64,000 nucleotides of DNA from an uncultured Gammaproteobacteria bacterium (GTDB taxonomy: Bacteria; Pseudomonadota; Gammaproteobacteria; JAKDMP01). Below the pieces are notes generated by a model that was not told the DNA's origin, did no database searches, and saw only the letters and a program-made list of their open reading frames with translations. Where the stretch lies: contig CAZPJI010000001.1 of assembly GCA_964586925.1 (NCBI GenBank), positions 63,280 through 127,279 on the forward strand. Reading direction: 5' to 3'. The translations under genes were made by a program, and so were the position numbers. This document shows, one piece after another, positions 42,617 to 62,554 of the stretch. How positions within the stretch are numbered: the stretch's first letter is position 1; each line of letters begins with the position of its first letter.

Positions 42617-42859
42617 ATGGGTATCGATGGCATAAGCATTTGGCAGCTGCTTATTATTCTGCTTCTGGTCGTTGTGCTTTTCGGCACGGGTAAACTGCGC
42701 CGGGTGGGTACGGACATGGGACATGCAATCCGGGGCTTTAAACGCGGCCTCCGCGGCGACGGTGAAGAGTCCTCGGCAACGCAACAGGAAGTATCGTCCG
42801 ACACGAATGACGGAAGGAAGGGGAAAGCCCGAAAAGCAGCATCGGCCGAGCGGAAATAA
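42617..42859 (+). CDS. tatA: Twin-arginine translocase subunit TatA/E
   Basis: [44 protein letters not shown] is the canonical TatA TM helix plus amphipathic helix. The start is the internal Met of track ORF 42602-42859. Confidence 0.88.
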
Positions 42860-42874
42860 CCGCTTAGCAACGCA

Positions 42875-43165: not shown

Positions 43166-43253
43166 GTATGACCGCCACATACAGTGCAGCTTTGGCCGGC
43201 TTACAAAACAGCTTGAATACGAATATGAGCATATGGTTGGGGTCTGGTGATCG

Positions 43254-44065: not shown

Positions 44066-45073
44066 TCAACAGATGCGGGGCAGGGGCTCGTTCTCGAGTT
44101 CTTCGAGTACTCGTTCCCCGCCAAATTCCGTACGGACGACCACTTCCGGGTAGCCTGATTGGACTTCGCCGATAATGACCGCACCAGGTGCCGCCCCCGT
44201 TTCCCGCAGCCTGCTCACCGCGGCCTCGGCTTCTTTTCCGTCCATGACGGCGACAATACGTCCCTCGCAAGCCAGATAGTAAGGATCGAAGCCCAGGATT
44301 TCACACACCGAAGCAACCGGGGGGCTCACAGGTATGAAAACTTCCGACAGGTACAGTCCGAGACCGGTCGCGCGTGCGATTTCGTTGGCGACGGTCGCGA
44401 CGCCGCCGCGCGTGGGATCCCGCATGAAGCGCAGCCCCGAAAACATGCGCAAAACACGGGCCGCGGGCAGTACGCTGGCCGCATCTGAGTGCAAGTCTCC
44501 GCTCAAGCCATAGTCTTCCCGGGCAAGCAGGACCGCGGCGCCATGATCGCCAACGGAGCCCGTCAGCACGATTTTGTCGCCGGGGCGAATCCGGTCCATT
44601 CCCAGGCTAAGTCCTTGCTGCTTGAGCCCGACGCCGGTGGTGGCGAAGTAAACACCGCCACACTCCCCACGTCCCACAACCTTGGTGTCGCCCGCAACGA
44701 TGGTCACCTCGCAGGCACGGGCGGCGGCAGACATGGAATCCAGCAGGCGTTCGAGAAGGGCAATCTCGAGCCCTTCCTCGAGGAAGGCGTTGAGAGTGAG
44801 GTATCTGGGTTCGGCGCCAGAGACGGCCAGGTCGTTGACGGTGCCGTGAATGGCTAACGAACCGATATCGCCACCGGGAAATTCCAGCGGCTGCACGGTG
44901 AAGCCATCGGTGGTGATCATCAGCTCTCCCTCCGCCGGCCAGGGTAGTTGCGCCGCATCGACGTTGACATCCAGGAGGGGGGAGGCAAGCCGGGACGCGA
45001 AAACGTTTTCGATCAGTTGCCGCATGAGTTTGCCGCCGTTACCGTGCGCAATGATGACATGGCTATCGTGCAT
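44066..45073 (-). CDS. hypE: [NiFe]-hydrogenase maturation factor HypE (carbamoyl dehydratase)
   Basis: It has the PurM-like fold, an N-terminal HGNGG and the C-terminal PRIC cysteine motif. It is 335 aa. Confidence 0.92.
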   Translation of the reverse strand: MHDSHVIIAHGNGGKLMRQLIENVFASRLASPLLDVNVDAAQLPWPAEGELMITTDGFTVQPLEFPGGDIGSLAIHGTVNDLAVSGAEPRYLTLNAFLEEGLEIALLERLLDSMSAAARACEVTIVAGDTKVVGRGECGGVYFATTGVGLKQQGLSLGMDRIRPGDKIVLTGSVGDHGAAVLLAREDYGLSGDLHSDAASVLPAARVLRMFSGLRFMRDPTRGGVATVANEIARATGLGLYLSEVFIPVSPPVASVCEILGFDPYYLACEGRIVAVMDGKEAEAAVSRLRETGAAPGAVIIGEVQSGYPEVVVRTEFGGERVLEELENEPLPRIC

Positions 45074-45085
45074 GAGCCCCCCGAA

Positions 45086-47431
45086 TCAAGTTAATCCGTT
45101 ATCCGTGCCTGGCACGGACTGAACCATGCCCGCGCGTGCCGCGGCCTCTATTATCTGACCATAAGACAAGCCGCCATCGTTAACCGGTAACTGCCGGGGA
45201 AGCAGCACTTCAAAGCCTTCCCGCTCCAGGCGTGCAATTGCGGCCTCGGTAAGGACGCGGTTCTGGAAAACGCCGCCGGTCAATGCAATCCTTGAGATGT
45301 CGTGCCGTTCACGCAGAGTCATGGCCTGATCCACCAGAGCCCGGGCCAGGGTGGCATGGAATGCCGCGGCGCGTTCCGCCGCCGGACGTGAATGGTCGAG
45401 CTGGGCGGAAAGCAACGGCTTCCAATCGGTGACGAGCAGGCCCTTTTCCGTTTCCCGGATGGGCAACGGCATGCCCTCGGCTTGAAGATCCTGCGCCAGT
45501 GCCTCCAGTTGCATGGGAGCCTGTCCGTCGTAGCTGACGGAATGGGTACCGGCGACAATGGCCGAGGCCGCATCGAAAAGCCGCCCCACGCTGCTGGTAT
45601 GGGGGCTGTTGAGGCCATCATGCCAGGCTGTGCGCAGCAGCGGATCGGCAAAAGCTTCTCCCGCTTTCCAGGCAAGACCAGCTTCCCAGCACAGTCCGAG
45701 TGCCGAACGCCAGGGTTCGGTGATGACACGTTCTCCCCCCGGCAGGCGGAATGGCCGCCAGGTTGCGACGCGCCGCCACGCGCCGGGATACCCGAACAAG
45801 GCTTCCCCGCCCCAGATCGTGCCGTCTTCGCCCAGCCCGGTGCCGTCCCAGGCAAAACACAGCAGCGGTTCGTTCAGCATGTCGAATTCGCCTGCGGCGA
45901 CACTGGCGTGGGCGTGATGGTGGAACACTTCCGTTACCGGCAGACCGCTGTTCTTTGCCCATCGGGAGTTGGGGAAGTCGGGGTGAGCGTCGCAGACGAG
46001 CGCTTCGGCACGTACGCCGTAAAGTTTTTGCAGATCGGCGCACACTTGTCGGAATACCCGGCGCGAGCGGGGGCTTGCGAGATCGCCTATATGGGGCGAG
46101 ACCACAATACGGTCTTCCCAGGCGAGCGCCACAGTAGTCTTCATGAAGGCGCCGACGGCAAGGAGCGGGCGCTGCAGGCGGAAAGGCAAATCGAGTTCCA
46201 GCGGGGCGATGCCGCGGCCGAGCCGGATCCGCAGCAGTCCGCCCGCGGCGGGCCGCAGCACCGGGTCGTCGGCAGGCCGCTCGATGGGCCGGTTGTGATG
46301 CAGGAACGCGTCGGCGACCCCACCCAGGCGTTTCTCGGCCTCGTTGGGATCGGTCAGGACCGGTTCGCCGCTGACGTTCCCCGAAGTCGCCACCACGGGG
46401 CGTTCGAAGCCCCCCAGCAATAGGTGGTGCAGCGGACTGTATGGCAGCATGAGCCCGATCTCGGTCAACGAGGGCGCGATTCCAGGGGCGAGCGGGGCAT
46501 CGTCGCGGCGCTCGACCAGCACGATGGGACGGACGGGATCGAGCAGGGCTTCGGCTTCCGTAGACCCCATGCCGGCGAGAGCGCGGGCCCACTCAAGTCC
46601 GTCATCGCCGGTCGCCGGAATCATGAGCGCAAGCGGCTTGTCGGGCCGGTGCTTGCGGCCGCGCAGCCGCATAACGGCGTCTTGGTCCGCTGCATCACAA
46701 AGCAGGTGATAGCCGCCGATGCCGCGCACGGCAACGGTTTCGCCGGCGCGCAGGGCGTCCAGGCAGGCCGCGAGGGCCGCTTCCGTATCCTCCACGGCCG
46801 GTTCGCCCGGGCGCGACCATGTCAAACCGGGACCGCATACCGGGCAGGCCAGGGGTTGGGCATGGAAGCGCCGATCCAGCGGATTTTCGTATTCCTTCCG
46901 GCAATCCGGGCAGAGCGTGAAGCCGGCGAGCGTCGTGTTGGGCCGGTCGTAGGGCATTGCGCGGATGATCGTGTAGCGTGGCCCGCACTGCGTGCAATTG
47001 ATGAACGGGTAACGGTTGCGGCGGGCGGCAGGATCGTTGAGTTCGGCAAGACAATCGTCGCAGGCGAACTGATCGGGGGGCACGTGGATGCTTGCCGACT
47101 TTGCGGTCTCGCTTTCACGGATGACGAAGCGGTCGTAACCCTTCCGCGCACTTTCTTCATCACGCAACAGATGGGGGCGTGCCAGCGGAGGCGCTTGGGC
47201 GATCAGTTCCCGGCTGAATTGGGCCAGTGCCGAATCATTGCCTTCGACGTGAATATGGACTTCTCCACCGGTATTGCACACCCAGCCGGCGAGCTGGTAA
47301 TGGTGTGCCAGACGATAGACGAAGGGACGGAAGCCGACGCCCTGCACGCGCCCGACGACCGTAATATTGCGCCCCGCCAATACCGGCATTGCGACGGTTG
47401 CCGATGTCGGGTTTGAATTGGAGCGCGGCAT
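45086..47431 (-). CDS. hypF: [NiFe]-hydrogenase maturation carbamoyltransferase HypF
   Basis: It has an N-terminal acylphosphatase domain (VVGRVQGVGFRPFVYRLA), two CxxC-x18-CxxC zinc fingers and YrdC and Kae1-like carbamoyltransferase domains. It is about 780 aa. Confidence 0.93.
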   Translation of the reverse strand: MPRSNSNPTSATVAMPVLAGRNITVVGRVQGVGFRPFVYRLAHHYQLAGWVCNTGGEVHIHVEGNDSALAQFSRELIAQAPPLARPHLLRDEESARKGYDRFVIRESETAKSASIHVPPDQFACDDCLAELNDPAARRNRYPFINCTQCGPRYTIIRAMPYDRPNTTLAGFTLCPDCRKEYENPLDRRFHAQPLACPVCGPGLTWSRPGEPAVEDTEAALAACLDALRAGETVAVRGIGGYHLLCDAADQDAVMRLRGRKHRPDKPLALMIPATGDDGLEWARALAGMGSTEAEALLDPVRPIVLVERRDDAPLAPGIAPSLTEIGLMLPYSPLHHLLLGGFERPVVATSGNVSGEPVLTDPNEAEKRLGGVADAFLHHNRPIERPADDPVLRPAAGGLLRIRLGRGIAPLELDLPFRLQRPLLAVGAFMKTTVALAWEDRIVVSPHIGDLASPRSRRVFRQVCADLQKLYGVRAEALVCDAHPDFPNSRWAKNSGLPVTEVFHHHAHASVAAGEFDMLNEPLLCFAWDGTGLGEDGTIWGGEALFGYPGAWRRVATWRPFRLPGGERVITEPWRSALGLCWEAGLAWKAGEAFADPLLRTAWHDGLNSPHTSSVGRLFDAASAIVAGTHSVSYDGQAPMQLEALAQDLQAEGMPLPIRETEKGLLVTDWKPLLSAQLDHSRPAAERAAAFHATLARALVDQAMTLRERHDISRIALTGGVFQNRVLTEAAIARLEREGFEVLLPRQLPVNDGGLSYGQIIEAAARAGMVQSVPGTDNGLT

Positions 47432-47597
47432 AAAGCGGCCTCAGGTCCGGGCGTCGGCCGGTGAGGGAATGGCGTTGAAAGAAGTCACGTTGCAGTCTCC
47501 GGCCGTGCGAAAAACACTGGTGCTCTCGCAAAGCTGCAGAACCCGCAAAAAATAATTTCTTTTCTTTGCGACTTGGCGCCTTTGCGGGAGTTTCTTT

Positions 47598-49340
47598 TCA
47601 CGTCTTTATATCCATTGGCGCAGCCTCGGGAACCTGCCACCCGAGCTGCCGGTGCCGGGCCAGGTAGAGCGGCGTCCAGGCATGGGGCACGCGGTAGACG
47701 AATTTGTAGCGGGCGACGTGATAGCTCGGATCGAATCCGTAGAAGTTGAGCCGCATCCGCTCCAACTCTTCCTCGCGGTAGGCCCTAAGCGGCTTGGCGG
47801 CCTCGTCGCGACTCCTGCGCCGGTCTTTCGCGGCGAGGCGGCGGGCGAAGTCCGCGGGATGCGCAAGCCTTTGTGCACGCGCACGCACGTCCTCCATGAA
47901 AGCGCCGGGTTCGGGGCCTGCTTCATCGTCAAGCAGGCCCCAGGATTTTGCCGCTCCGGACAGCACCGGAAGCCGGTGTTGCATGATGCGTCCCGATTCG
48001 TCCGCGCCCACGCGCCGCGGGAGCAGGTACGTCCAGTATTCCGAGCCGTACAGGTTACCCATGTTCTGGTAATGGGGATTGAGGACGATGCCCCGGCGCG
48101 CATAGATTTCATCGGCCGCCAGGGCCAGGAAAACTCCGCCCGCGCCCGCATTGCCCCTGAGCGCTGCGATTGTGAGCTTGTCCGCGGTAGTGATGATCTC
48201 CTCCGCGAGATCATCCATGGCATTGATGTTGCGCCAGGATTCATCGGCCGGGCTGGCGGCGGCCTCGATGGTATTGAGGTCGAGGCCGTTCGACCAGAAA
48301 TCCCGTCCACCCATGAGAACGATGACCCGCGTGGGGCGAGAGCACGCGTGGCGATACGCCGCCAGGAGCCGGCGGCAGCGCGCCGTGCTCATGGCGCCGT
48401 TGTAGAAATCGAAGTACAGATATCCGACCGCGCCGTCTTCCTGGTAAAGGATGTCCATGTATCCGATATCGTTCGGGGCAGCCGTTTCTGAACACGCTTC
48501 CGGCACTCCTGCAAGGCGTGAATCGCCGAGTGCGGCGACTGCCGGCAGTTTGAAAGGCAGGGCGGCTTCGCCGAGGGCGCGCAGATGACCGATCCAGATC
48601 GCACCGTCGCCTGTCGCCCGGCAAACCGCGCCGTGGTATTGGGTCAGGATATCTCCGGGTTTGCCCCGAAAACCCATGGCAGGATGTGCGTCGACGGTCC
48701 GGCAGGGCAGGCCGAGGATTTCATCCTCGACGCCGGGATTGCCGTCGCCGGCCCATATCTTGCGTAGCGCGGTGCGCGTGTCGTCGCCGGCCCAATCGAT
48801 CCTGCGCTCAGATTGGCGCATCATTGGCCGCCAGCCGCGGCCAGCGGCGCCCGGGAAATTTGCAGCAGGAATCGGTTCGAAGCCGGGTTCGCCGGCGTGC
48901 GCCACGGCCTCGAGCACCGCCTGCACGGCCGCTTCCGTTACTTCGAATCGGTAGAGACTGCTCTTTCGCGCTTCGCGCATGGGGAAACCGCGCGCTGCCC
49001 ATACCGGTCCGGCGTCCATTTCGGCCTCGGCTTGCAACACGGTTACGCCCCAGTATGCCTCCTGTTCGAGAATCGCCCGGTCCAACGCGGAAGGGCCGCG
49101 GTCGCCGGGCGGACCAGGATGGACGATGAGGCAGCGGTGCCGGCGCCACACGGCTTCGGGGATGGCACGCTTGAGGTATGGGGCAACGATGAGGTCGGGC
49201 TGAAACAGATCGACCGCTTCGATCGTGGCCGGATCGTTGATGTCGAGTTCGACCGAAAGTTCGTGCCCGCGCTCTGCCAACTCCGCGTAAATACGTTGGC
49301 TCAGGCTGTTGAATGTATGACAGAGCAGGAGAATACGCAT
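47598..49340 (-). CDS. hypX: HypX/HoxX hydrogenase maturation factor
   Basis: It has an N-terminal N10-formyl-THF transformylase-like domain (MRILLLCHTFNSLSQRIYAELAERGHEL...VHPGPPGDRGPSALD) and a C-terminal crotonase-like domain. The start chosen is MRILLL (49340), which overlaps the hypD stop (TGATG-type coupling). The track ORF extends to 49535. Confidence 0.8.
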   Translation of the reverse strand: MRILLLCHTFNSLSQRIYAELAERGHELSVELDINDPATIEAVDLFQPDLIVAPYLKRAIPEAVWRRHRCLIVHPGPPGDRGPSALDRAILEQEAYWGVTVLQAEAEMDAGPVWAARGFPMREARKSSLYRFEVTEAAVQAVLEAVAHAGEPGFEPIPAANFPGAAGRGWRPMMRQSERRIDWAGDDTRTALRKIWAGDGNPGVEDEILGLPCRTVDAHPAMGFRGKPGDILTQYHGAVCRATGDGAIWIGHLRALGEAALPFKLPAVAALGDSRLAGVPEACSETAAPNDIGYMDILYQEDGAVGYLYFDFYNGAMSTARCRRLLAAYRHACSRPTRVIVLMGGRDFWSNGLDLNTIEAAASPADESWRNINAMDDLAEEIITTADKLTIAALRGNAGAGGVFLALAADEIYARRGIVLNPHYQNMGNLYGSEYWTYLLPRRVGADESGRIMQHRLPVLSGAAKSWGLLDDEAGPEPGAFMEDVRARAQRLAHPADFARRLAAKDRRRSRDEAAKPLRAYREEELERMRLNFYGFDPSYHVARYKFVYRVPHAWTPLYLARHRQLGWQVPEAAPMDIKT

Positions 49341-50506
49341 CAGGCCGGCGACCGACATATTTTTTCGGATACAGGCTGCTCGGCAAGACCGCGGTGATGG
49401 CGGTACTTGTAGTAAGCGGCGCAGGCGCCTTCGGAGGACACCATGCACGATCCGATAGGGTTGCTCGGGGTGCAGACGGTCCCGAATATCTTGCAATCCA
49501 TGGGCTTCTTTGCGCCGCGTATGATGGCTGGGCACTGGCAGGCCTTGTTTTCGGGCACCGGCCGCGCCACCAATCCGAACCGGCGTTCGGCATCGAACGC
49601 CGCGTATGCGTCTTTAATTTTAAGGCCGCTGTAGGGCACGTTCCCGAGGCCCCGCCACTCGAATTCGGCACGCAGTTCGAACACTTCGGCCACCAGCCGT
49701 TGTGCCTTCAGGTTGCCCTCGCGCGTAACGCCGCGCAAGAACTGGTTCTCTACCGTAGCCCGGCCCGAGTTGAGCTGATCGACGAGCATGCGGATCGAAA
49801 GGAGCACGTCGAGCGGTTCGAAGCCCGAAATCACGACCGGCTTCTGGTACTCCCGGGCGAAATACTCGTAAGGGCGGCTGCCGATGACGGTGCTCACATG
49901 CGACGGGCCGATGAAACCGTCCACCTTCACGCTACCCAGGGAGCGCACTTCCGGAGAGTCGAGGATGCTCTGGATGGCCGAAGGGGTCAGCACGTGATTG
50001 CAGTACACCGTAAAGTTGCGCAGCCCGAGGCGGCTTGCTTCCAGGATGGCCAACGCCGTGGGCGGGGTCGTGGTCTCGAAACCGATGGCGAAAAACACGA
50101 CGTTGTTTTCCGGGTTCTCCTGTGCGATCCGTACCGCCTCGGTTGCGGATGTAACGACTCTGACGTCGCTGCCCCTGGAACGCGCTTTGACCAGGCTGCG
50201 CTTTCGCGAGGCGGGGACACGCAACATATCGCCGTAGCTCGCAAGTATCACGTCGTCCCGTTCGGCCAGCTCGACAGCCAGATCCAGGCGCGGGATCGCC
50301 AGCACGCACACCGGGCAGCCGGGGCCGTGCACCAGCTCCACATTCTCCGGCAACAGATCCTGGACACCATGGCGAAAAATCGCATGGGTATGGCCGCCGC
50401 AGAACTCCATCAAGTGATAGCTGCGGCGCGGATCTACCTCTTGCGCCAACTTTCCGGCGAGGGCCGCGGCCGCCTGGCCGTTACGAAACTCGCGGATATA
50501 CCGCAT
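49340..50506 (-). CDS. hypD: [NiFe]-hydrogenase maturation factor HypD
   Basis: MRYIREFRN is the typical HypD N-terminus. It has the CGxH, GPGCPVC and C-terminal Fe-S cysteine motifs. The start is taken at the internal Met (50506) of the track ORF. Confidence 0.9.
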   Translation of the reverse strand: MRYIREFRNGQAAAALAGKLAQEVDPRRSYHLMEFCGGHTHAIFRHGVQDLLPENVELVHGPGCPVCVLAIPRLDLAVELAERDDVILASYGDMLRVPASRKRSLVKARSRGSDVRVVTSATEAVRIAQENPENNVVFFAIGFETTTPPTALAILEASRLGLRNFTVYCNHVLTPSAIQSILDSPEVRSLGSVKVDGFIGPSHVSTVIGSRPYEYFAREYQKPVVISGFEPLDVLLSIRMLVDQLNSGRATVENQFLRGVTREGNLKAQRLVAEVFELRAEFEWRGLGNVPYSGLKIKDAYAAFDAERRFGLVARPVPENKACQCPAIIRGAKKPMDCKIFGTVCTPSNPIGSCMVSSEGACAAYYKYRHHRGLAEQPVSEKICRSPA

Positions 50507-50738
50507 CGGGCGATTCTCCAATGGCCTCTGCCAGCTCGGCAAAGAGCGCCAGTGTCTTTTCCGCTTCTTCGACGTCGAGCTTGTTGATGGCATGGCCTAC
50601 GTGCACGATGACATAGTCGCCCGGTTGCACGTCATCCAGGAGTGCAACGGATATATGACTGCGGATGCCGCCGGTATCCACGAGTGCGATCTCGTCCGGA
50701 AGCAATTCCACGACTTGTGCGGGCACCGCGAGGCACAT
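50481..50738 (-). CDS. hypC: [NiFe]-hydrogenase maturation chaperone HypC
   Basis: MCLAVPAQVVEL... has the N-terminal Cys2 signature of HypC/HupF. It is 85 aa and overlaps the hypD start. Confidence 0.9.
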   Translation of the reverse strand: MCLAVPAQVVELLPDEIALVDTGGIRSHISVALLDDVQPGDYVIVHVGHAINKLDVEEAEKTLALFAELAEAIGESPDAVYPRVS

Positions 50739-50741
50739 GAT

Positions 50742-51503
50742 TTAGCCCGTCCTGGACAAGTGCAGCGAGGGACGCATGCTCATTTGCTCTCCAAGCCATC
50801 CGAGCCAGGGATCAAGTGACTCAGCGAGTCGAGAGGATACCAGGAAGACAGGCGCTGCGTTGCCGATCGTACGCACGGCCTTTTCGGCTTTGTCCGGATC
50901 GAAATCGCCCTGCAAGGCTTGGAGCAGATCGGTCTTGGTCAATAGCACTAGATCCGACTCACGGAACATGACGGGATACTTGGCGGGCTTGTCATCGCCT
51001 TCGGTCGTACTCAGCAAGGTAACGTTGAGATGTTGCCCGAGATCGAAACTGGCCGGGCAAACCAGGTTGCCGACGTTCTCGATAAAAAGGACGTCGATTT
51101 CGTCGAGATCCATGCCGTGCAAGGCATCGTGCACCAGGTGGGCATCCAGATGGCAGGCCGTGCCGGTCGTGATCTGTACGGCCGGTACGCCGCAACTCCG
51201 GATCCTTTCTGCATCGTTTTCCGTTTCTAGGTCACCTTCTATGACTGCGATACGCAGATTCTTGTCCAAATTCCGAATTGTCGCTTCCAGGAGGCTCGTT
51301 TTTCCGGCCCCGGGGGATGACATCAGGTTTATTGCAAGGACACCATGGGCATCGAAATGCTCGCGGTTGTGCGCTGCCTGACGGTCGTTGACATCCAACA
51401 AGTCGGTCAACACCTCGATGGTATCTTTCCCGGAATTCGCATGAATCGCATGTGCATGCTGTTTATTTCCGGAAGTAATCGTGCAGCCGCATGTTTCACA
51501 CAT
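50742..51503 (-). CDS. hypB: [NiFe]-hydrogenase nickel-incorporation GTPase HypB
   Basis: It has an N-terminal metal-binding CxxCGC (MCETCGC), a G1 motif (SSPGAGKTSLLE) and the SIMIBI-class GTPase fold. The start is taken at the internal Met. Confidence 0.9.
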   Translation of the reverse strand: MCETCGCTITSGNKQHAHAIHANSGKDTIEVLTDLLDVNDRQAAHNREHFDAHGVLAINLMSSPGAGKTSLLEATIRNLDKNLRIAVIEGDLETENDAERIRSCGVPAVQITTGTACHLDAHLVHDALHGMDLDEIDVLFIENVGNLVCPASFDLGQHLNVTLLSTTEGDDKPAKYPVMFRESDLVLLTKTDLLQALQGDFDPDKAEKAVRTIGNAAPVFLVSSRLAESLDPWLGWLGEQMSMRPSLHLSRTG

Positions 51504-51903
51504 CTCTATGTTCCTCCACAAAGTCAGCGGATGCCGGCAGCGGTTCATACGAAGAGTCTTCGGTTTGCAGCTCCAGGCTCGCCAGTATCAGTTCATCTCC
51601 ACCCAGAAGCGTGGTGTGGTAGTCGCCGCAATTGGGACACAGCAGTTTGTTTGTCGGTACGACCGACTCCATACCGCAACCTTGGCAGCGTACCCTCGGG
51701 GGCATCTCCTCGGTCGCCAGAACCGCTTCTTCGGCCAGCGTCCCGTGGCGGGCAACAAGGAAAGTACGCTGCAACAGAACGGGTACGACGCCCGAAAGCG
51801 GACCGATCTTCAGGTCGATTCGAGTGACTCGTACAGCCCGGTTTTGCTGAGCAATTTCTTCGACTTGGGACAATAAAGCCTGGCATATGGCAAGTTCGTG
51901 CAT
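51496..51903 (-). CDS. hypA: [NiFe]-hydrogenase nickel-insertion protein HypA (with about 20-aa C-terminal extension)
   Basis: It has MHELAICQALL..., a MHE nickel-binding N-terminus and two CxxC pairs (CQGCG...CPNCG). Confidence 0.88.
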   Translation of the reverse strand: MHELAICQALLSQVEEIAQQNRAVRVTRIDLKIGPLSGVVPVLLQRTFLVARHGTLAEEAVLATEEMPPRVRCQGCGMESVVPTNKLLCPNCGDYHTTLLGGDELILASLELQTEDSSYEPLPASADFVEEHRDV

Positions 51904-51950
51904 CGGCATTCACCTCACAAAAAGTATAGAAGCAGCACAGCCGTAACCTC

Positions 51951-52051
51951 TTTGACTCAGATCAAATCCATGCCTTTCCAGTCTGTCCGGGCGTTGCGAG
52001 GCGGGTCGGAAAAGCAGATTGGATTAATTTCGCTCCTTTTGATCTGAGTCA
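51951..52051. promoter_or_regulatory. Long-range perfect inverted repeat TTTGACTCAGATCAAA ... TTTGATCTGAGTCA in the hypA / hoxM divergent intergenic region
   Basis: The sequence seen at about 51951-51966 is exactly reverse-complementary to about 52038-52051 (14-15 nt), about 70 nt apart. Each half contains a TGA-N6-TCA core. Coordinates are approximate (plus or minus 1). Confidence 0.5.
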
Positions 52052-52086
52052 GGTCACAGTCCCAACCGGCGAGCTAGCCTTTTCAA

Positions 52087-52632
52087 GTGGCTTGGCGGAG
52101 GGACAGAGGAATGCAGGCCAATAGTCTCGATTCGGAACTGGACATGGAAAGCGTGCAGGCCGAAACCGCGGTCCGCGCCACGGTATTGGGAATCGGCAAC
52201 ATCCTTCTCGGCGATGATGGTGTCGGCATAGCCGTTGTGGAAGCATTGAGGGATGAGTTGTCCGCGCAGGGCGTCAAGATCGTGGATGGCGGCACATTGA
52301 GCTATACGCTGCTTCCGCTGATTGAAGATACCAACGTGATGATAACGGTCGATGCTGGCCGCCTCGGAAGTGTGCCCGGGTCAGTCTCTACCTTCAAGGG
52401 TGCGGCCATGGACGAATACCTCGGGAGGGCTTCATCCGGCACGGTCCATGAAGTCAGTTTGCGGGACCTTATGGATATGGCCAGGTTGAGAGATTCACTG
52501 CCCGAACACCGTGCCCTGGTGGCCATTCAACCTGATAGCGTCGACTGGGGCAGCACATTGACGCCGCGGGTGGCCGAAGCGGTACCCGTTGCAGCCGATG
52601 CCGTGCGCCGGCTGCTGGAGGTGTGGCAATGA
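52087..52632 (+). CDS. Hydrogenase maturation endopeptidase (HoxM/HupD/HyaD family)
   Basis: It has LGIGNILLGDDGVGIAVVEAL (a GNxxxxDDGxG nickel-dependent protease motif). The likely start is MESVQAE (52144). Confidence 0.85.
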   Translation: MAWRRDRGMQANSLDSELDMESVQAETAVRATVLGIGNILLGDDGVGIAVVEALRDELSAQGVKIVDGGTLSYTLLPLIEDTNVMITVDAGRLGSVPGSVSTFKGAAMDEYLGRASSGTVHEVSLRDLMDMARLRDSLPEHRALVAIQPDSVDWGSTLTPRVAEAVPVAADAVRRLLEVWQ

Positions 52633-53102
52633 ACGAACCGATGGACATGGCCGGGTCCGCAGCGGCTGCCGGCCGACAACCGCCCCCGGATGAAGCGGAG
52701 ACGATAGGCGCGGGCTTCGCCGCCATTCTAGGCGAGCTGGTTCAGCTTCTCGAGCGTTTTTCAGAAACCGGCGAACGCGGCGTGATCGATCTTCACACCC
52801 TTCCCATGTCGCCGGTGGAGTACGAGAATCTGCGCGATGTCCTCGGACGGGGAGAAGTGGCCGCCGAGCTTGACATTGGCGGTCCATCGTCAATTTACGA
52901 AACGAGTTTTCACGGCGCTTGGTGGGTGCAGCACTGCACGCCGGACGGTGAGGTTGCGGCGGAATATATCGAGGTCGCCGCGGTGCCTGAAATGCTGCTT
53001 GCGGATGCCTCCGAAGCCCGCCGCGACGCACAGCGATTGAGGACCCGGATTGCGCACTGGGAACCCTTAGCGAGTAACGAGGGGGTGACAGAAGATGACT
53101 AG
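52623..53102 (+). CDS. Hydrogenase-operon protein of unknown function (159 aa)
   Basis: Its start overlaps hoxM and its stop overlaps hynS. It has an acidic C-terminus and no motif I can assign to HyaE/HybE/HupH with confidence. Confidence 0.5.
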   Translation: MAMNEPMDMAGSAAAAGRQPPPDEAETIGAGFAAILGELVQLLERFSETGERGVIDLHTLPMSPVEYENLRDVLGRGEVAAELDIGGPSSIYETSFHGAWWVQHCTPDGEVAAEYIEVAAVPEMLLADASEARRDAQRLRTRIAHWEPLASNEGVTEDD

Positions 53103-54240
53103 ATCCGAATCCGTCCAAACGGTCAATGACGCACTTGACAGGCAAGGCATCAGTCGACGGACTTTCCTGAAGAGCTGCATGCTTGCCGCTTCCGCGATGG
53201 CTTTGTCGCCGCTGGCCGGATCGGCCATGGCAAAGCAGCTGGGCAAGATGAAACGGCCGTCCGTAATCTACCTTTCGTTCCAGGAGTGTACGGGATGCCT
53301 GGAATCGCTGACCCGTTCTTTCAGCCCCACGTTGGAGCATTTGATATTCAACGTAATCTCCCTGGACTACGACGACACCCTCATGGCCGCCGCCGGCCAC
53401 CAGGCCGAAGCCGCCAAGGAGCAGGCGATGCGCGACAACTACGGCAAATACGTCCTTGTCGTAGACGGTGCCATCCCCTTGGCGTTCGGCGGAGCATGCC
53501 ATACGGCGGCGGGCAAGAGCGCGATCCAGATCCTCAAGGAGGCGGCCAAAGGAGCCAGGGCGATCGTTGCGGTGGGCACATGCGCGACCTTCGGTGGCCT
53601 TCCGCATGCCAATCCGAATCCGACCGGCGCGATAGGCGTGTCGGATCTGATCAAGGACAAGCCTGTGATCAACGTCTCGGGTTGTCCGCCCATTCCCGTG
53701 GTCATGGCGGGAACGATCATGCACTTCTTCGCTTTCGACAAGGTCCCGGAACTGGATGAGCTGCATCGCCCGAAGATGTTCTATGGCAATACGATCCACG
53801 ACCGTTGTTACCGCCGGCCTTTCTACGATGCCGGCAAGTTTGCCGAGAGCTTCGACGACGAAGGTGCGCGCAACGGCTGGTGCCTGTACAAGCTCGGCTG
53901 CAAGGGGCCGACCACGTACAACTCCTGTGCCACGCTGAAATGGAACCAGGGGGTGAGTTTCCCGATCGAGTCCGGACATCCTTGCCTGGGCTGTTCCCAG
54001 CCGAATTTCTGGGACGGCGGCAGCTTCTACGCGGCGTTACCCACGCCGAAGTGGGGCAAGGCCGGCGAAGGCAATCCTTCCAAGGCGGGAGAGATCGCCG
54101 GTGCCGCGGCCGGTATCGGGGCTGGGGTCGGGCTTGCGGCTGCGGGACTGTCGCGTTATCGCCAATACCGCCGGGCCATAAAGGCGGCGGCTGCCGCAGA
54201 AAATGGCGACGACAGCGACGGGCAATCAAAGGAGGAATGA
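53095..54240 (+). CDS. hynS: [NiFe] hydrogenase small subunit (HynS, Isp-type group 1)
   Basis: It has a Tat signal (SRRTFLKSCMLAASAMALSPLAGSAMA) and the Fe-S cluster Cys ladder (CTGC...GTCATFGG...CPP...C..C) of small subunits. It is 381 aa. Confidence 0.9.
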   Translation: MTRSESVQTVNDALDRQGISRRTFLKSCMLAASAMALSPLAGSAMAKQLGKMKRPSVIYLSFQECTGCLESLTRSFSPTLEHLIFNVISLDYDDTLMAAAGHQAEAAKEQAMRDNYGKYVLVVDGAIPLAFGGACHTAAGKSAIQILKEAAKGARAIVAVGTCATFGGLPHANPNPTGAIGVSDLIKDKPVINVSGCPPIPVVMAGTIMHFFAFDKVPELDELHRPKMFYGNTIHDRCYRRPFYDAGKFAESFDDEGARNGWCLYKLGCKGPTTYNSCATLKWNQGVSFPIESGHPCLGCSQPNFWDGGSFYAALPTPKWGKAGEGNPSKAGEIAGAAAGIGAGVGLAAAGLSRYRQYRRAIKAAAAAENGDDSDGQSKEE

Positions 54241-54243
54241 GTC

Positions 54244-54981
54244 ATGGATCTTCTGAGCATTGCACGCGGGCCGGCTCTCAAGGCGGCGTTGGCCATCTTT
54301 TTCTTCGGCATTACCTGGCGTCTGGTAACCATTTTCCTGCTGCGTCATAACTGGCAATTGAGCTTTGCCCGTGAGGGCAGGGCGGGCGCCTGGTCCGGAG
54401 CATTGAAATCGGTGTTTACTTTCCGCAGACCACGGCTCAGCCGGGCCAGGCGTAGTTCGATGGAAGCGACCGCAGACGCAGCCGTAGCGGTAGGCTCCCG
54501 ATCCTGGCCCCATCCGCCATTCGTACGCCGAACGCTCTATGGCGAGACGATCGGGTATCTCTATCACATCGGCCTGGCGCTCGTGGTCATTTTCGGTGCG
54601 CCGCATATCCTGGTGCTGAAAAGCTTCTTCGGTGTCGGATGGCCGGCTTTGCCGACGCCGATCATTACCATTATTTCCGTGCTTACGCTGGCGCTGCTCT
54701 TTGCGGCATTGATGCGTCGCTTGGGCAGCCCGGTGCTGCGCCATCTATCCAATTTTGACGATTATTTCAGCTGGAGCATCGTAACGCTGGTTTTTGCTAC
54801 CGGCCTCATGGCGCACGGACACCTTGGTGGCCCGTACCAGGATGTGCTGGCATGGCACATCCTCAGTTTTGATCTGTTGCTGGCGTGGTTCCCGTTCGGA
54901 AAACTCATGCACGCATTCTTCCTTACGCCGTCACGGGCCATCGCAGGTTATCTGCTCAAGAGAAGGGGGGCGCCGGTATGA
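54244..54981 (+). CDS. isp1: Isp1: NarI-like b-type cytochrome membrane subunit of the Hyn hydrogenase
   Basis: The 245-aa protein has five predicted TM helices with conserved His residues. It sits between hynS and the hdrD-like gene exactly as in the hynS-isp1-isp2-hynL loci of purple sulfur bacteria. Confidence 0.75.
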   Translation: MDLLSIARGPALKAALAIFFFGITWRLVTIFLLRHNWQLSFAREGRAGAWSGALKSVFTFRRPRLSRARRSSMEATADAAVAVGSRSWPHPPFVRRTLYGETIGYLYHIGLALVVIFGAPHILVLKSFFGVGWPALPTPIITIISVLTLALLFAALMRRLGSPVLRHLSNFDDYFSWSIVTLVFATGLMAHGHLGGPYQDVLAWHILSFDLLLAWFPFGKLMHAFFLTPSRAIAGYLLKRRGAPV

Positions 54982-56339
54982 CACCAGACAATCGTGTGTC
55001 GAGTGCGGCTGCCATCGCGGCCAGTGATATCCGCCAACCGCACGGTCATTATGACGAGGAGGGTGGGGCAAGCGCCCAGGCCCGAGTCAATGCCGCGGTG
55101 CGCAGCTTCGTGCTGGACGTGGGAGCCGTCTCGGCCCTGAGACTGGATTCATGCGTGCATTGCGGCATGTGCGCGGATGCCTGTCCCTTTTATGTCGCCA
55201 CGGACGATCCCCGCTATACGCCGATCCACAAGGTAGAGCCCCTGAAACAGACCTATAAGCGCGAAGCGGGACCCTTCGCGCCGTTCTTCAAGCTGTTGGG
55301 ACTCAAGCGCAAGGTTACGATCGAAGAGCTGCATGAATGGGAAGAGCTGCTATTCGACAGTTGCACCCTGTGCGGACGCTGCAGTCTGATTTGTCCGATG
55401 GGGATAGACATTACCGCGCTGATAGAAGATGCGCGCCACGGGATGTCGGAAGCCGGACTGGTGCCGAAGGCATTGTATGAGAAGGCCTACAGGCAACATC
55501 GCAGTGGCAATGTGTTCGGTCTGAGCAACGAAGAAATTACCCGCCGCCTTGCCGGGATAGGGCAGGAGCATGGGATAGATATTCCGATCGACCGTGCCGG
55601 TGCCGAGATCATGGTATGCACGACAGTCGAAGAAATGGATGCCTATCCGGCCACGGTTGCGGCCATGGTGCGGGTGCTCGAACATGTCGGTGCCAATTAC
55701 ACCTTCTGCAGCCAGGCGGTCGACGCGAGCAATTACGGTTACGTCGGAGGCAGTCTCGCATGGGAACGTGAAGGCATAGTGCGAATTGTCGAAGCGGCTA
55801 AGCGCTACGGTGTGAGAACCGTCGTCATGCCCGAAGATGCCTTTGCCTATGTTGCTTTGCGCTGGGAAGGGACCGAGCTGTATGGCAAAGCGCTGCCCTT
55901 CGAAGTGAAGCACATCAGTGAATTCATGCAGGAGGAACTGGCAGCCGGACGTCTTCGCCTGAAGAAAGGCAACGGTGCAGACGGCGGGGCCGTGGTGCTC
56001 CATGAGTCCAGCCAACTGCTTCGCCGCGGTGGTGTGGTGGGTGCGCCTCTCGACCTTTTGGAGGCGATGGGGGTGGCCTTCAAGCGGCCTGCCGATCACG
56101 GCGCCTTCGCATGGTGTTGCGGCGGAGGCGGAGGGGTTCTGGAAAACGAACGGGCTCAACCGTTGCGCTACCGGGTATTCGAAGCCCGGATGCGCGAAAT
56201 CGAGGCAACACAGGCCGACGAGATCGTTACCTGCTGCTCGGTCTGTCGGCGGACGTTTGATGATGGCGTGGACCGTTTCGGCTGGGACAAGCGCATTGTC
56301 GGACTCACGGAAATGGTGGCGGCGCACCTGGCCGGGTAA
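54978..56339 (+). CDS. isp2: Isp2: heterodisulfide-reductase (HdrD)-like Fe-S subunit
   Basis: It has two ferredoxin-type CxxCxxCxxxCP motifs (CVHCGMCADACP, CTLCGRCSLICP) and two CCG domains (WCCGGGGG). The start at 54978 overlaps the isp1 stop. Confidence 0.85.
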   Translation: MTPDNRVSSAAAIAASDIRQPHGHYDEEGGASAQARVNAAVRSFVLDVGAVSALRLDSCVHCGMCADACPFYVATDDPRYTPIHKVEPLKQTYKREAGPFAPFFKLLGLKRKVTIEELHEWEELLFDSCTLCGRCSLICPMGIDITALIEDARHGMSEAGLVPKALYEKAYRQHRSGNVFGLSNEEITRRLAGIGQEHGIDIPIDRAGAEIMVCTTVEEMDAYPATVAAMVRVLEHVGANYTFCSQAVDASNYGYVGGSLAWEREGIVRIVEAAKRYGVRTVVMPEDAFAYVALRWEGTELYGKALPFEVKHISEFMQEELAAGRLRLKKGNGADGGAVVLHESSQLLRRGGVVGAPLDLLEAMGVAFKRPADHGAFAWCCGGGGGVLENERAQPLRYRVFEARMREIEATQADEIVTCCSVCRRTFDDGVDRFGWDKRIVGLTEMVAAHLAG

Positions 56340-56386
56340 AAGGGCATCGCTTGAGCATGGGAGATGCCGGGAATCAAGGAAACGAT

Positions 56387-58132
56387 ATGAGTACGCAGAC
56401 CATAGTTGTAGATCCAATCACCCGTATCGAAGGCCATCTTCGGATTCAGGCCGAGATGAACGGAAATGCAATTGCACAGGCCTCGAGTTCGGGCATGATG
56501 GTTCGCGGTATCGAAATCATTCTTCGCGACCGCGACCCTCGCGATGCCTGGGCGTTTGCCCAGCGCGCTTGCGGGGTATGTACGCTGGTGCATGGAATTG
56601 CCTCCGTTCGCGCGGTTGAGAATGCGCTGCACTATCCGATACCCGACAATGCGCGTTTGATTCGCAATCTGATGATTGCACAGCAGTACGTGCACGATCA
56701 CGTCATGCACTTCTACCAGCTTCATGCGCTGGACTGGGTGGATGTTGTCTCGGCGTTGAAGGCCGATCCCAAGGCGACTTCTGCGCTGGCGCAATCGATT
56801 TCTGACTATTCGCGCTCTTCGCCCGGCTATTTCGCCGACGTGCAGGACAAAGTCAAACGGCTGGTGGAATCTGGACAGCTTGGCATTTTCGCGAACGGCT
56901 ATTGGGGGCATCCGGCATACAAGCTGCCGCCCGAGGCGAACCTGATGGCCGTGGCCCATTATCTGGAAGCACTTGCCTGGCAACGGGAGGCATGCAAGAT
57001 CCATACCGTGTTCGGAGGCAAGAACCCCCATCCGAACTTCGTGGTGGGAGGCGCACCAGTCGCCATCAGCGCTTCATCCGGCGGACAGTCGACCAATACG
57101 ACGGCTGTTGACATGGAAGGACTTGCACTCGTCGAGGACATCATCGGGAAACTTCGCAACTTCGTCGATAAGGTTTATCTGCCGGATACCGTTGCTATTG
57201 CTTCCTTCTACAAGGATTGGTTCAAGCCGGGTCACGGGGAAGGCACGGGCAATTTCATGACCTACGGGGAATTTCCCGGGAAAAGCATTGACGATCTTTC
57301 GAGTCTGATGATTCCACGTGGCGCGATCCTGAATCGGGATCTCACGCGCATTCACCCGGTGGATCTAGACGACCCGACTCAGGTACAGGAATTCGTCTCC
57401 CATTCCTGGTACGACTATTCGTCCGGGAAGAATACCGGTCTGCACCCTTACAAGGGCCAGACCAAACTCGATTACACGGGTCCCAAACCGCCCTTCAAAC
57501 TACTCGACACCAAGGGCAGTTATTCATGGTTGAAATCGCCGCGTTGGCGGGGACATCCCATGGAGGTGGGGCCGCTCTCGCGGGTGCTCATGCTGTATGC
57601 CAGCGGGCACGAGCAGACGAAATCGCTCGTCGACCAGACGCTCGCCAGGCTGGATTTGCCGATCGAAGCCGTCTTCTCGACCATGGGGCGCACAGCGGCC
57701 CGCACATTGGAAAGCAAGATCATTGCCGACGCGATGTCAGGCTGGTTCAGCGAGTTGATGAGCAACGTGAAGAAGGGCGATTTGAACACTTGGAACGGCA
57801 AGCTGTGGGAACCCTCTAGTTGGCCGAAGCATGCCGAAGGCGCCGGCTATACGGAGGCGCCGCGAGGTGCGCTCGCGCACTGGATCGTCATCGAAGACGG
57901 TTTGATCGACAACTACCAGATGGTGGTGCCGACTACCTGGAACGCGGGTCCGCGCGATGCGCAAGGCCAGGACGGCGTCTATGAGTCATCGATCATCGGG
58001 CAGAAGCTTTACGATACGACGCAACCGCTTGAGATACTGAGGACGATACACAGTTTCGATCCCTGCATTGCCTGCGCCGTGCACGTCAGCGACCCTGATG
58101 GCAAGGAACTGCTTCAGGTCAAGGTCTGTTGA
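56387..58132 (+). CDS. hynL: [NiFe] hydrogenase large subunit (HynL)
   Basis: It has the N-terminal RIEGH...RACGVCT motif (L1) and the C-terminal DPCIACAVH motif (L2) with the endopeptidase cleavage site. Confidence 0.93.
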   Translation: MSTQTIVVDPITRIEGHLRIQAEMNGNAIAQASSSGMMVRGIEIILRDRDPRDAWAFAQRACGVCTLVHGIASVRAVENALHYPIPDNARLIRNLMIAQQYVHDHVMHFYQLHALDWVDVVSALKADPKATSALAQSISDYSRSSPGYFADVQDKVKRLVESGQLGIFANGYWGHPAYKLPPEANLMAVAHYLEALAWQREACKIHTVFGGKNPHPNFVVGGAPVAISASSGGQSTNTTAVDMEGLALVEDIIGKLRNFVDKVYLPDTVAIASFYKDWFKPGHGEGTGNFMTYGEFPGKSIDDLSSLMIPRGAILNRDLTRIHPVDLDDPTQVQEFVSHSWYDYSSGKNTGLHPYKGQTKLDYTGPKPPFKLLDTKGSYSWLKSPRWRGHPMEVGPLSRVLMLYASGHEQTKSLVDQTLARLDLPIEAVFSTMGRTAARTLESKIIADAMSGWFSELMSNVKKGDLNTWNGKLWEPSSWPKHAEGAGYTEAPRGALAHWIVIEDGLIDNYQMVVPTTWNAGPRDAQGQDGVYESSIIGQKLYDTTQPLEILRTIHSFDPCIACAVHVSDPDGKELLQVKVC

Positions 58133-59112
58133 TGATGGCGCGGGAGGCAAAGTTCGGACACCGCCTGCTGGGGGTTGGATTGGTCGTTGCGGCCCTGAAT
58201 CTGGTGGCATTCGCCGGCTTGCTCAAGCTGGCAAGCATGGGTGCGGCCATTGGAGGCATTGGCACGCTCGCATACCTGCTCGGTGCCCGGCATGCCTTTG
58301 ATATCGATCACGTCGCTGCCATCGACAATGTGACGCGACGATTGCGCCAGAATGGACACAAGCCGACTGCCGTGGGGTTGTTCTTTTCCATGGGACATTC
58401 CACGATTGTTGTCGCGGCCACGGCTGTATTGCTTCTGGGGGGCGAGCATTTCCGCCGCTTGTTGCCGGTCTTGCAAGGGTGGGGGGGTGTCCTCGGCGCC
58501 GGGATATCGGCGGCGTTCCTCATCATGATCGGTACGGCCAATGTCGCTATCGCCCGGCAGGTATGGAGGACACGCGGGGAATCCACGGACGAGGCGGGCG
58601 CATGGGAAATCGAGGCTCTGCTCGAACGCCGCGGTTTTATGGCCCGGATCATGAGCTTTGCCTACCGGCGCATCGACAAGAGCCGGAAAATGTATCTGGT
58701 CGGCCTGCTGTTCGGTCTGGGTTTCGATACAGCCAGCGAGATCATACTGCTGGCCTTGACGGCTGCTGCCATGCACCAATACGGTCTGAGTCCCTGGTCG
58801 TTGCTCGGACTGCCCCTGCTGTTCGCGGCCGGGATGACACTGATGGATTCCGCCTGTGGTCTGGGCATATTGAGTCTCTACAATTGGTCCATTGCCGGAG
58901 GGCGGCGTACGTGGATAGTCAATATCGGCGTTACCGGGCTCTCGACACTGCTCGCGTTAGGGGTAGGGACCGTGGAGCTTTCCACGTCGTTTCATTGGTC
59001 CATGGTGCCTACCCTGGGCCTTGTTGCCGGCATCGGCGTCATGTTTACTTTGTTTACATTCAGGCGTCAGCCCGTGACCGGTCCCATCGAAGCCGAAGGG
59101 ATAAGGAATTGA
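58129..59112 (+). CDS. hoxN: NiCoT-family high-affinity nickel permease (HoxN/HupN/NixA)
   Basis: It has the signature HAFDIDHVAAIDN in TM2 and FFSMGHST. It is 327 aa with 8 TM helices. Confidence 0.85.
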   Translation: MMMAREAKFGHRLLGVGLVVAALNLVAFAGLLKLASMGAAIGGIGTLAYLLGARHAFDIDHVAAIDNVTRRLRQNGHKPTAVGLFFSMGHSTIVVAATAVLLLGGEHFRRLLPVLQGWGGVLGAGISAAFLIMIGTANVAIARQVWRTRGESTDEAGAWEIEALLERRGFMARIMSFAYRRIDKSRKMYLVGLLFGLGFDTASEIILLALTAAAMHQYGLSPWSLLGLPLLFAAGMTLMDSACGLGILSLYNWSIAGGRRTWIVNIGVTGLSTLLALGVGTVELSTSFHWSMVPTLGLVAGIGVMFTLFTFRRQPVTGPIEAEGIRN

Positions 59113-61247: not shown

Positions 61248-62135
61248 ATGCAATCGATACTCTCATCATTGAGAATGAATTTCCTGACCTTGACGCTCGC
61301 TTGCGTTTTCCTCGGGACGACCGTTTCCTACAGGCTGGTCGGACACCTGCAGATTGTTGACATAGTACTGGTCTTGATAGGCGCGCTGCTGGCTCATGCA
61401 TGCGTAAACCTGCTTAACGAATACCAGGACTATAGAAGCGGGCTGGATGTCATTACGGTAAAAACGCCGTTCAGCGGTGGCAGCGGCGCATTGCCGGCGC
61501 ATCCGGAAGCGGCTGGAGCAACGCTTACTGCAGCCGTCATCACATTCTCTGCAACGGCTGTAATCGGCGTGTATTTCCTTCTCTCGCATGGCCTATGGCT
61601 GCTGCCGGTTGGAATACTCGGCTTGCTTACGATCGTCTTCTATACCAACTGGATCACCCGCCATGCCTTGTTGTGCCTGGTTGCACCGGGGTTCGGCTTT
61701 GGCCCCCTGATGGTGATGGGAACTGGTTTCGTTCTCACCAATCACTATACTTGGCAAGCATTCATCGCTTCGTTGACGCCGTTTTTCCTGGTCAGCGAAC
61801 TCCTGTTGATCAATCAATTTCCCGACGTGGAAGCTGATCGGCAGGTAGGGCGGCAGCATTACCCCATTCTGATCGGGCGCCGGCGCAGTGCTCTGATCGG
61901 CGGTGCTTTTCTTCTGCTGGCTTATGCACCTATCGCTGGTGGGGTATTGACTGGTTTCTTTCCGAAGATGGCAGCGCTGGGATTGATTCCGTTGCTGTTC
62001 GCAGTGCCGCTGGCATGGAACATGTGGCGCAAATCCGAAAGCCCCAATTCGATTGTCTCTTATCTGGGTTTCAATGTGGCCGTGATCATGGCAACCATTA
62101 TTCTGTTTGCCGCCGGCTGGCTGTTCAAGTATTGA
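61248..62135 (+). CDS. UbiA-superfamily prenyltransferase, MenA-like (second copy)
   Basis: It has the motif NEYQDYRSGLD (MenA-type NDYxDxxxGxD with Glu at position 2) and about 8 TM helices. It is 295 aa. Confidence 0.7.
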   Translation: MQSILSSLRMNFLTLTLACVFLGTTVSYRLVGHLQIVDIVLVLIGALLAHACVNLLNEYQDYRSGLDVITVKTPFSGGSGALPAHPEAAGATLTAAVITFSATAVIGVYFLLSHGLWLLPVGILGLLTIVFYTNWITRHALLCLVAPGFGFGPLMVMGTGFVLTNHYTWQAFIASLTPFFLVSELLLINQFPDVEADRQVGRQHYPILIGRRRSALIGGAFLLLAYAPIAGGVLTGFFPKMAALGLIPLLFAVPLAWNMWRKSESPNSIVSYLGFNVAVIMATIILFAAGWLFKY

Positions 62136-62200: not shown

Positions 62201-62554
62201 ATGGGTACACAACAACGGATCAATGCTCTGTTTGCGAGTATCGACCGGAAGGATGTCCGGGGATTTTCATCCTATCTCGCCAAGAATGTGGATTTTCGTT
62301 TTGGAAACGCCCCGATGGTTTCGGATCGGGAAACGGCTTCTTCAGCAGTGCAACAGTTTTTCGAAAGCGTCAAGGCTTTGCGGCATACTATTGAAGAAAC
62401 CTGGGAGCAGGGGGATCAAGTCGTCTGCCACGGAACCGTCACCTATACACGCCATGACGACAGCCGACTATCGGTGCCGTTTGCAAACATCTTTACGCTG
62501 CGTGAGGATCAAATATCGCGTTATCTGATTTTTGCCGATCTCTCGGACCTTTGA
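62201..62554 (+). CDS. SnoaL-like / NTF2-fold small protein
   Basis: The 117-aa protein has an alpha+beta cone-fold pattern (short N-terminal helix and C-terminal beta strands) resembling SnoaL-like polyketide cyclase / ketosteroid isomerase-like domains. Confidence 0.5.
   Translation: MGTQQRINALFASIDRKDVRGFSSYLAKNVDFRFGNAPMVSDRETASSAVQQFFESVKALRHTIEETWEQGDQVVCHGTVTYTRHDDSRLSVPFANIFTLREDQISRYLIFADLSDL

Follow-up and report, generated by a model that had tools for sequence, protein, structure and literature searches.

The hydrogenase locus described here raises the question of whether a small open reading frame (ORF), positioned between a maturation protease gene and the gene for the hydrogenase small subunit, encodes a new accessory protein or a member of a known family. 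The locus lies at positions 52,087 to 58,132 of a 64,000-nucleotide stretch of DNA from an uncultured Gammaproteobacteria bacterium (GTDB lineage JAKDMP01; contig CAZPJI010000001.1, positions 63,280 to 127,279), and this whole stretch is referred to as the window. An earlier note, made from the sequence without database searches, described the ORF as a 159-residue protein of unknown family that could be a new assembly or twin-arginine translocation (Tat)-proofreading chaperone. Neither claim of novelty held. The ORF is a short single-domain member of the HupH/HyaF (HupH_C) family and belongs with the form represented by the structure 3SB1. With regard to the whole reading, we are highly confident that the locus is a typical Isp-type operon carrying the usual 5′ maturation module, with the small ORF encoding a HupH protein that has the 3SB1 fold.

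Identity of the small open reading frame

A comparison of the ORF product with Pfam gave a match to HupH_C (PF04809) of 81.6 bits (gathering cutoff 23, E = 5.1e-23), with residues 34-144 aligned to positions 6-116 of the 118-position profile. HupH_C was the sole Pfam match at E ≤ 0.01, and neither HyaE (PF07449) nor HybE was detected. Of the families that the earlier note had proposed for profile comparison (HybE, HyaE, HupH, and HupJ), it is the HupH family that was matched, while HyaE and HybE were not. HyaE had no match among the eight window proteins scanned, and the HyaE model of the same library does detect Escherichia coli HyaE.

The assignment extends to solved and predicted structures. 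A profile built from the ORF, its five closest database relatives, and the identical database protein P0001 matched one PDB sequence, 3sb1 (E = 2.3e-28). This entry is a 160-residue 'hydrogenase expression protein', the HupH from Thiobacillus denitrificans ATCC 25259, and like the ORF product it has a single HupH_C domain. T. denitrificans also carries hynS-isp1-isp2-hynL (PMC2621215). An AlphaFold2 model of the ORF product, calculated from a 60-sequence alignment, had a mean predicted local distance difference test (pLDDT) score of 87 and consisted of disordered residues 1-27 followed by an α/β domain at residues ∼28-149. A Foldseek search of this model against the PDB returned 3SB1 at E = 2e-12, with a root-mean-square deviation (rmsd) of 1.1 Å over 114 columns, a template modeling (TM) score of 0.91 (target), and 38% identity; no further match was found below 1e-3. 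The structure prediction that had been suggested as a check of the ORF thus yielded the fold of a known HupH rather than a new one. In addition, hhalign related the family to E. coli HyaF, where the alignment fell on the C-terminal HupH_C domain (residues 184-274) with a probability of 90.8%.

Two other explanations of the ORF were considered. The view that it belongs to a new accessory family, acting as a new assembly or Tat-proofreading chaperone, could draw on the NCBIfam library, in which the ORF found no match and hence no equivalog name, and on a word-indexed search with the ORF alone, which gave only six homologues. The latter result is an artefact of sensitivity, as exhaustive HMMER and profile searches showed: HMMER over 1.84 billion cluster representatives gave 940 matches at E ≤ 1e-3 (614 at E ≤ 1e-10), and nearly every one of the best-scoring 150 of the 940 is a single-domain protein of ∼125-190 residues. 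Homologues already carry names, namely 'hydrogenase-1 operon protein HyaF' at the Joint Genome Institute (JGI), 'hydrogenase expression/formation C-terminal domain-containing protein' at NCBI, and 'hydrogenase expression/formation protein' in RefSeq. Considering also a Pfam score far above its cutoff and the sequence and fold in common with 3SB1, a new family is very improbable, and the idea of a new chaperone is refuted because the ORF matches a well-known accessory family.

Even less credence, indeed almost none, goes to the view that the ORF arose by chance, as an open frame in a GC-rich stretch separating two real genes. It is true that the window is ∼60% GC and holds many spurious long ORFs in other frames. 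However, five other database proteins keep the reading frame intact and share 51-64% identity, 55 columns being invariant, and because of this conservation we consider the ORF a real gene. The strong domain match, the confident predicted fold, a Shine-Dalgarno sequence at the right spacing, and a position kept in 10 other loci complete the refutation of a chance frame. A scan of contigs with the small-ORF alignment returned one short contig of a metagenome-assembled genome.

The Isp-type operon and its upstream maturation genes

All six ORFs of the locus were confirmed on the plus strand, each with strong family support, in the order hynD (protease), small ORF (hereafter hupH), hynS, isp1, isp2, and hynL (Table 1). 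Most junctions overlap by 4-8 nucleotides (nt) or leave a gap of 3-11 nt. The hynD and hupH genes overlap by 4 nt (ATGA), hupH and hynS by 8 nt, and isp1 and isp2 by 4 nt (ATGA, provided that isp2 starts at ATG 54978), with gaps of 3 nt between hynS and isp1 and 11 nt between isp2 and hynL; the start of the downstream nicO gene overlaps the hynL stop. These distances bear out the earlier description of a protease gene and a tightly coupled small ORF ahead of hynS.

The genes and their order also stood as first described, with minor corrections to the start codons of hupH, isp2, hynL, and possibly hynD. The count of 159 residues for the small ORF runs from GTG 52623. A GGAGG sequence precedes ATG 52629 by 7 nt and GTG 52623 by just 1 nt; the most likely start is therefore ATG 52629, giving 157 residues as in P0001. 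The longest isp2 ORF begins at 54885, and Isp2 of relatives has 441-453 residues; the most likely start is ATG 54978 (453 residues), overlapping the isp1 stop. For hynL the start is probably ATG 56387 (581 residues, as in the related locus L003). The longest hynD ORF begins at GTG 52087, and the start is possibly ATG 52111, which gives 173 residues as called in L002, a contig identical to the window.

Judged from its gene order, motifs, and best PDB match, the locus is an Isp-type (group 1e), periplasm-facing, membrane-bound [NiFe] hydrogenase operon of typical make-up. HynS contains the Tat motif SRRTFLK at residues 20-26, and this twin-arginine signal therefore indicates an enzyme that faces the periplasm. 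A hydrophobic anchor segment is present near the HynS C terminus (residues ∼334-352). The six-cysteine form of the proximal-cluster motif marks O2-tolerant group 1d enzymes; HynS here has the standard ECTGC instead. HynL contains the motifs RIEGH, RACGVCTLVH at 72, and DPCIACAVH at 570, with all four Ni-Fe cysteines (the N- and C-terminal CxxC ligands), and ends in a 15-residue C-terminal extension that would be the usual substrate of a HyaD-type endopeptidase. Isp1 had no Pfam match, and its NCBIfam scores for TmcC (98 bits) and HmcE (89 bits) fall below the equivalog cutoffs; JGI labels its homologues (n = 1136) 'nitrate reductase gamma subunit'. Isp2 contains two CxxCxxCxxxC motifs and two CC motifs (CCG-type), like HdrD-type proteins. 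The closest solved relative of both subunits is 3MYR (large subunit 880 bits, small subunit 411 bits), 135 bits above the next match, which is of group 1d. We take 3MYR to be the Allochromatium vinosum enzyme, itself an Isp-type enzyme.

Taken together, the gene order, Tat signal, CxxC ligands, and C-terminal tail agree with the earlier assignment to the hynS-isp1-isp2-hynL group 1 [NiFe] hydrogenases. The TmcC/HmcE-like and DsrK/TmcB-like scores are likewise in line with what had been said of the two intervening genes, that Isp1 is a NarI-like membrane cytochrome b and Isp2 an HdrD-like Fe-S protein.

The position of the protease gene had been singled out as unusual, on the ground that this gene usually follows the large subunit. 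The generalization applies to operons of the E. coli hya type, in which the protease comes after the large subunit and cytochrome b, but it does not apply to Isp-type operons, as seen in 10 related loci and in the literature. Five loci (L007, L008, L009, L016, and L017) were picked solely via an Isp1 homologue (∼55% identity), ignoring HupH, and five (L003, L011, L012, L013, and L014) were reached through the HupH protein. In all five Isp1-picked loci, a HycI-HupH_C pair is encoded directly 5′ of hynS, followed by isp1-isp2-hynL, and hypA-B-C-D are divergent upstream, with a hypX-like gene after hypD in four of them. The HycI-HupH_C pair is also directly 5′ of hynS in each of the five HupH-picked loci. 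L003 matches the window in gene order, tatABC, hypE/F/X, and NicO included, and where the window has the cytochrome c/b fusion gene described below, L003 has one for a multihaem cytochrome c. L011 (Acidimangrovimonas) and L012 have the order hynD-hupH-hynS-isp1-hynL-isp2, L013 is fragmented but has an equivalent arrangement, and L014 (RefSeq plasmid pHY1 of Methylovirgula sp. HY1) reads isp2-protease-'hydrogenase expression/formation protein'-hynS-isp1-hynL. Across the variants L011, L012, and L014, the hynD-hupH-hynS-isp1 core is constant and isp2 alone moves. Published orders include hynD (AFE_3281)-hynH (3282)-hynS-isp1-isp2-hynL in Acidithiobacillus ferrooxidans (PMC5021923) and hynD-hupH-hynS-hynL in Alteromonas macleodii (PMC3102683). 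An upstream protease is the rule for Isp-type hydrogenases and no peculiarity of this locus.

Comparison with known systems supplies further parallels. In hyn gene order and 5′ module, the locus agrees with published Hyn clusters of the A. ferrooxidans and T. denitrificans type. The A. ferrooxidans enzyme is classed as Isp-type group 1e and has a Tat signal on HynS (PMC5021923, PMC7735108, PMC2621215), and its operon shows the same order of six genes, in which hynS comes right after the protease gene and a small 'H' gene (PMC5021923); we equate its hynH with the short hupH by name and position. In that organism the hyp genes lie downstream, whereas in the window they are divergent and upstream and include hypX, and the window additionally has a NicO permease gene after hynL and the haem c/b fusion gene further downstream. 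The divergent upstream hyp genes with hypX, the NicO gene, and a multihaem gene downstream are common to L003 and the window, and NicO occurs in several other loci too. The Alteromonas cluster, likened here by published gene order, has hynD-hupH directly 5′ of hynS and includes a cytochrome gene (PMC3102683), but neither isp1 nor isp2 separates hynS from hynL. In the Hyn operons of Allochromatium vinosum and Thiocapsa roseopersicina, isp1-isp2 are placed between the structural genes as in the window; the accessory genes of Thiocapsa are reportedly scattered in the genome (PMC3102683), whereas here they form one compact divergent cluster.

Possible roles of the short HupH

The short HupH has the same Pfam domain as the two-domain HupH/HoxQ/HyaF proteins of Rhizobium leguminosarum, Ralstonia eutropha, and E. 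coli hya. The latter are ∼280 residues in length with two HupH_C stretches, and they belong to O2-tolerant group 1d enzymes. Their genes lie downstream of those for the large subunit, cytochrome b, and protease, and HyaE/HupG usually accompanies them. E. coli HyaF, for instance, has 285 residues and two HupH_C stretches, and its gene follows hyaD-hyaE. In contrast, the protein of the window is encoded upstream; having a single domain and lacking a HyaE/HupG partner, it falls outside the classical two-domain HupH/HyaF subfamily.

The best-supported role for the short HupH, drawn from its homology with two-domain HupH/HoxQ, would be that of an assembly chaperone of the small-subunit precursor. 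HupH of R. leguminosarum forms complexes with pre-HupS, and HoxQ and HoxO of R. eutropha bind to the Tat signal peptide, shield the Fe-S clusters, and stop export from occurring too early (PMC3126725). In Alteromonas, HupH is needed for maximal hydrogenase activity on heterologous expression (PMC3102683), and an environmental enzyme of 99% identity was obtained in active form in Thiocapsa with hyaD and hupH as the sole co-expressed accessory genes (PMC7460606). The short HupH would hold or protect pre-HynS, or a HynS-HynL intermediate, up to the completion of large-subunit processing, and that its gene is invariably coupled to the one for the protease suggests that it acts at the processing step. 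The earlier guess at an assembly or Tat-proofreading function agrees with the role proposed for HupH/HoxQ (PMC3126725), although this is the role of a known family and not a new one.

Several points weigh against our interpretation. As noted above, NCBIfam provides no equivalog name for the ORF. The published binding data concern two-domain HupH/HoxQ and not the short form. Similarity between the AltDE HupH and its Thiocapsa counterpart amounts to just 11% (PMC3102683), and for this reason functional transfer between HupH proteins is uncertain. A literature search turned up no functional study tied to 3SB1, a structure that establishes fold and not mechanism. The electron acceptor of Isp2 is putative. 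Lastly, the constant pairing with the protease, together with fusions of the two proteins, could mean that the target is the large subunit and not the Tat signal of the small subunit.

This last point can be phrased as an alternative in which the short HupH works together with the HynD protease on the large subunit and is not a chaperone of the small subunit or its Tat signal; it could act by presenting the HynL C-terminal tail or by checking Ni insertion before cleavage. The hynD and hupH genes are always adjacent, being translationally coupled by ATGA here and adjacent in the 10 related loci, and two database proteins, P0213 (332 residues) and P0238 (305 residues), are HycI-HupH_C fusions. 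However, hupH is coupled equally tightly to hynS by their overlap, and the binding data for its homologues indicate the small-subunit precursor (PMC3126725). The fusions, moreover, are only 2 of the 150 best-scoring representatives, and single-base indels at the ATGA junction could have produced them when the metagenomes were assembled. We therefore regard a partnership with the protease as possible but rather unlikely. A related proposal, that the short HupH is a distinct accessory factor which physically partners HynD, is not a HoxQ-like masker of the Tat signal, and couples HynL processing to HynS docking, is one that we would put forward only tentatively. The roles of small-subunit chaperone and protease partner need not be mutually exclusive.

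With respect to the two fusion proteins themselves, Pfam places HycI at the N terminus and HupH_C at the C terminus of both P0213 and P0238, a possible Rosetta-stone link between protease and HupH. Assignment of these proteins as classical two-domain HupH was rejected, since Pfam shows protease-HupH_C fusions.

From what is established about maturation in these protein families, the following working of the hydrogenase may be proposed. HypABCDEF, here with HypX, would build the Ni-Fe(CN)2CO site and insert it into HynL, with nickel imported by NicO. HynD would cleave the 15-residue HynL tail after His578, and HynS and HynL would then be co-exported as a dimer by Tat. Electrons from H2 would pass via three HynS Fe-S clusters to the Isp1 haems and from there to quinone and/or to Isp2 and a putative sulfur-linked acceptor. 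In Thiocapsa, Isp1 and Isp2 are needed for in vivo electron transfer and not for maturation (PMC3102683, PMC10892978).

Surrounding genes and significance of the locus

The features of the locus and its surroundings are collected in Table 1.

Table 1. Coordinates of the hydrogenase genes, the divergent maturation genes, and neighboring features, numbered from the first letter of the window.
Feature	Coordinates	Strand	Evidence
hynD, HyaD/HybD-type [NiFe]-hydrogenase maturation endopeptidase	52111..52632	+	PF01750 HycI 68.5 bits; TIGR00072 127.5 bits
hupH, short single-domain HupH-family protein, 157 residues	52629..53102	+	PF04809 HupH_C 81.6 bits; 3sb1 by profile and Foldseek; AlphaFold2 model
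hynS, small subunit	53095..54240	+	TIGR00391 431 bits; best PDB match 3myr_A 411 bits; motif scan
isp1, integral-membrane NarI/HmcE/TmcC-like cytochrome b	54244..54981	+	NF045723 TmcC 98 bits; NF045716 HmcE 89 bits; hydrophobic segments
isp2, cytoplasmic HdrD/DsrK-like Fe-S protein	54978..56339	+	DsrK 174 bits; TmcB 138 bits; PF02754 CCG; PF13183; Cys motifs
hynL, large subunit	56351..58132	+	PF00374 766 bits; best PDB match 3myr_B 880 bits, E = 6e-264; motifs
nicO, HoxN/NixA-type (NicO) nickel permease	58129..59112	+	PF03824 202 bits; TIGR00802 245 bits; same place in L003, L008, L017
Cytochrome c/b fusion gene, 591 residues	59152-60927	+	
UbiA-family prenyltransferase gene	61248-62135	+	
SnoaL_2 gene	62201-62554	+	
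hyp operon, hypA-hypB-hypC-hypD-hypX-hypF-hypE, divergent	44066..51909	-	Gene calls and Pfam matches in identical contig L002
hypA	~51496-51903	-	
hypB	~50742-51503	-	
hypC	~50481-50738	-	
hypD	~49340-50506	-	
hypX	~47598-49340	-	Formyl_trans_N/C and ECH_1 (enoyl-CoA hydratase) domains
hypF	~45086-47431	-	
hypE	~44066-45073	-	
tatA/tatB/tatC	~42600-44033	+	
FNR/CRP-type box (TTGAY-N4-RTCAA) TTGACTCAGATCAA, hypA/hynD divergent promoter	51952-51965		Pattern search
FNR/CRP-type box (TTGAY-N4-RTCAA) TTGATCTGAGTCAG, hypA/hynD divergent promoter	52039-52052		Pattern search

A HypX-like gene is conserved in the hyp operons of L003, L008, L009, L016, and L017; at its position, L007 has two genes to which no Pfam family matched, and in L012 a gene is absent there. 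Isp-type hydrogenases are regarded as O2-sensitive, and the occurrence of HypX beside one hints at maturation under oxic conditions. The tat genes adjoin hypE, ∼8 kb upstream past the hyp operon, as they do in L002 and L003.

The divergent promoter between hypA and hynD contains two FNR/CRP-type boxes. In the window as a whole, the degenerate box pattern had 17 matches compared to 5.15 expected. The same intergenic region of L003, L008, L011, L012, and L013 holds one or two exact boxes each, a recurrence suggesting that both the hyp and hyn operons are under conserved control of the FNR type (anaerobic or microaerobic). FNR-type control of hyn operates in Thiocapsa, with which the conserved boxes agree. 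A scan of the operon for sigma-70 promoters and terminators found no more sites than in shuffled sequence, and a search of the whole window against Rfam at gathering thresholds returned nothing.

Right after hynL-nicO lies a gene for a 591-residue protein with seven CXXCH haem c motifs in its N-terminal half and a cytochrome b561 membrane domain of the HyaC/formate-dehydrogenase-gamma type in its C-terminal half. A multihaem cytochrome c gene is found in the same downstream place in L003 (569 residues) and nearby in L007 (715 residues; the Pfam match covers the c-type part only). The c/b fusion may offer a second route by which electrons leave the hydrogenase. A UbiA-family gene and then a SnoaL_2 gene lie downstream of the cluster; UbiA again comes after hynL or nicO in L008, L009, and L017, and is then followed by SnoaL_2, on the opposite strand, in L008 and L009. 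The region from 32000 to 44000 of the window has a GC content of 0.49-0.55 compared to ∼0.60 elsewhere, encodes PAP2, a phosphopantetheinyl transferase, a GAF-GGDEF-EAL protein, and a second UbiA protein, and may be acquired DNA. The remaining window is ordinary chromosome, including dnaB, radA, and glycogen metabolism genes.

As a further case of a well-described hydrogenase type, from an uncultured gammaproteobacterium, the locus carries little weight as a discovery. The family of its 'mystery' gene is already annotated routinely and has both a Pfam model and a crystal structure, and the small ORF can come off the list of candidate new chaperones. The short HupH is nevertheless widespread and, in the loci examined, strictly linked to the protease, and it has been shown to matter solely in Alteromonas. 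The conserved hynD-hupH pair, along with the rare fusions, makes a tractable target for studies of hydrogenase assembly or heterologous expression.

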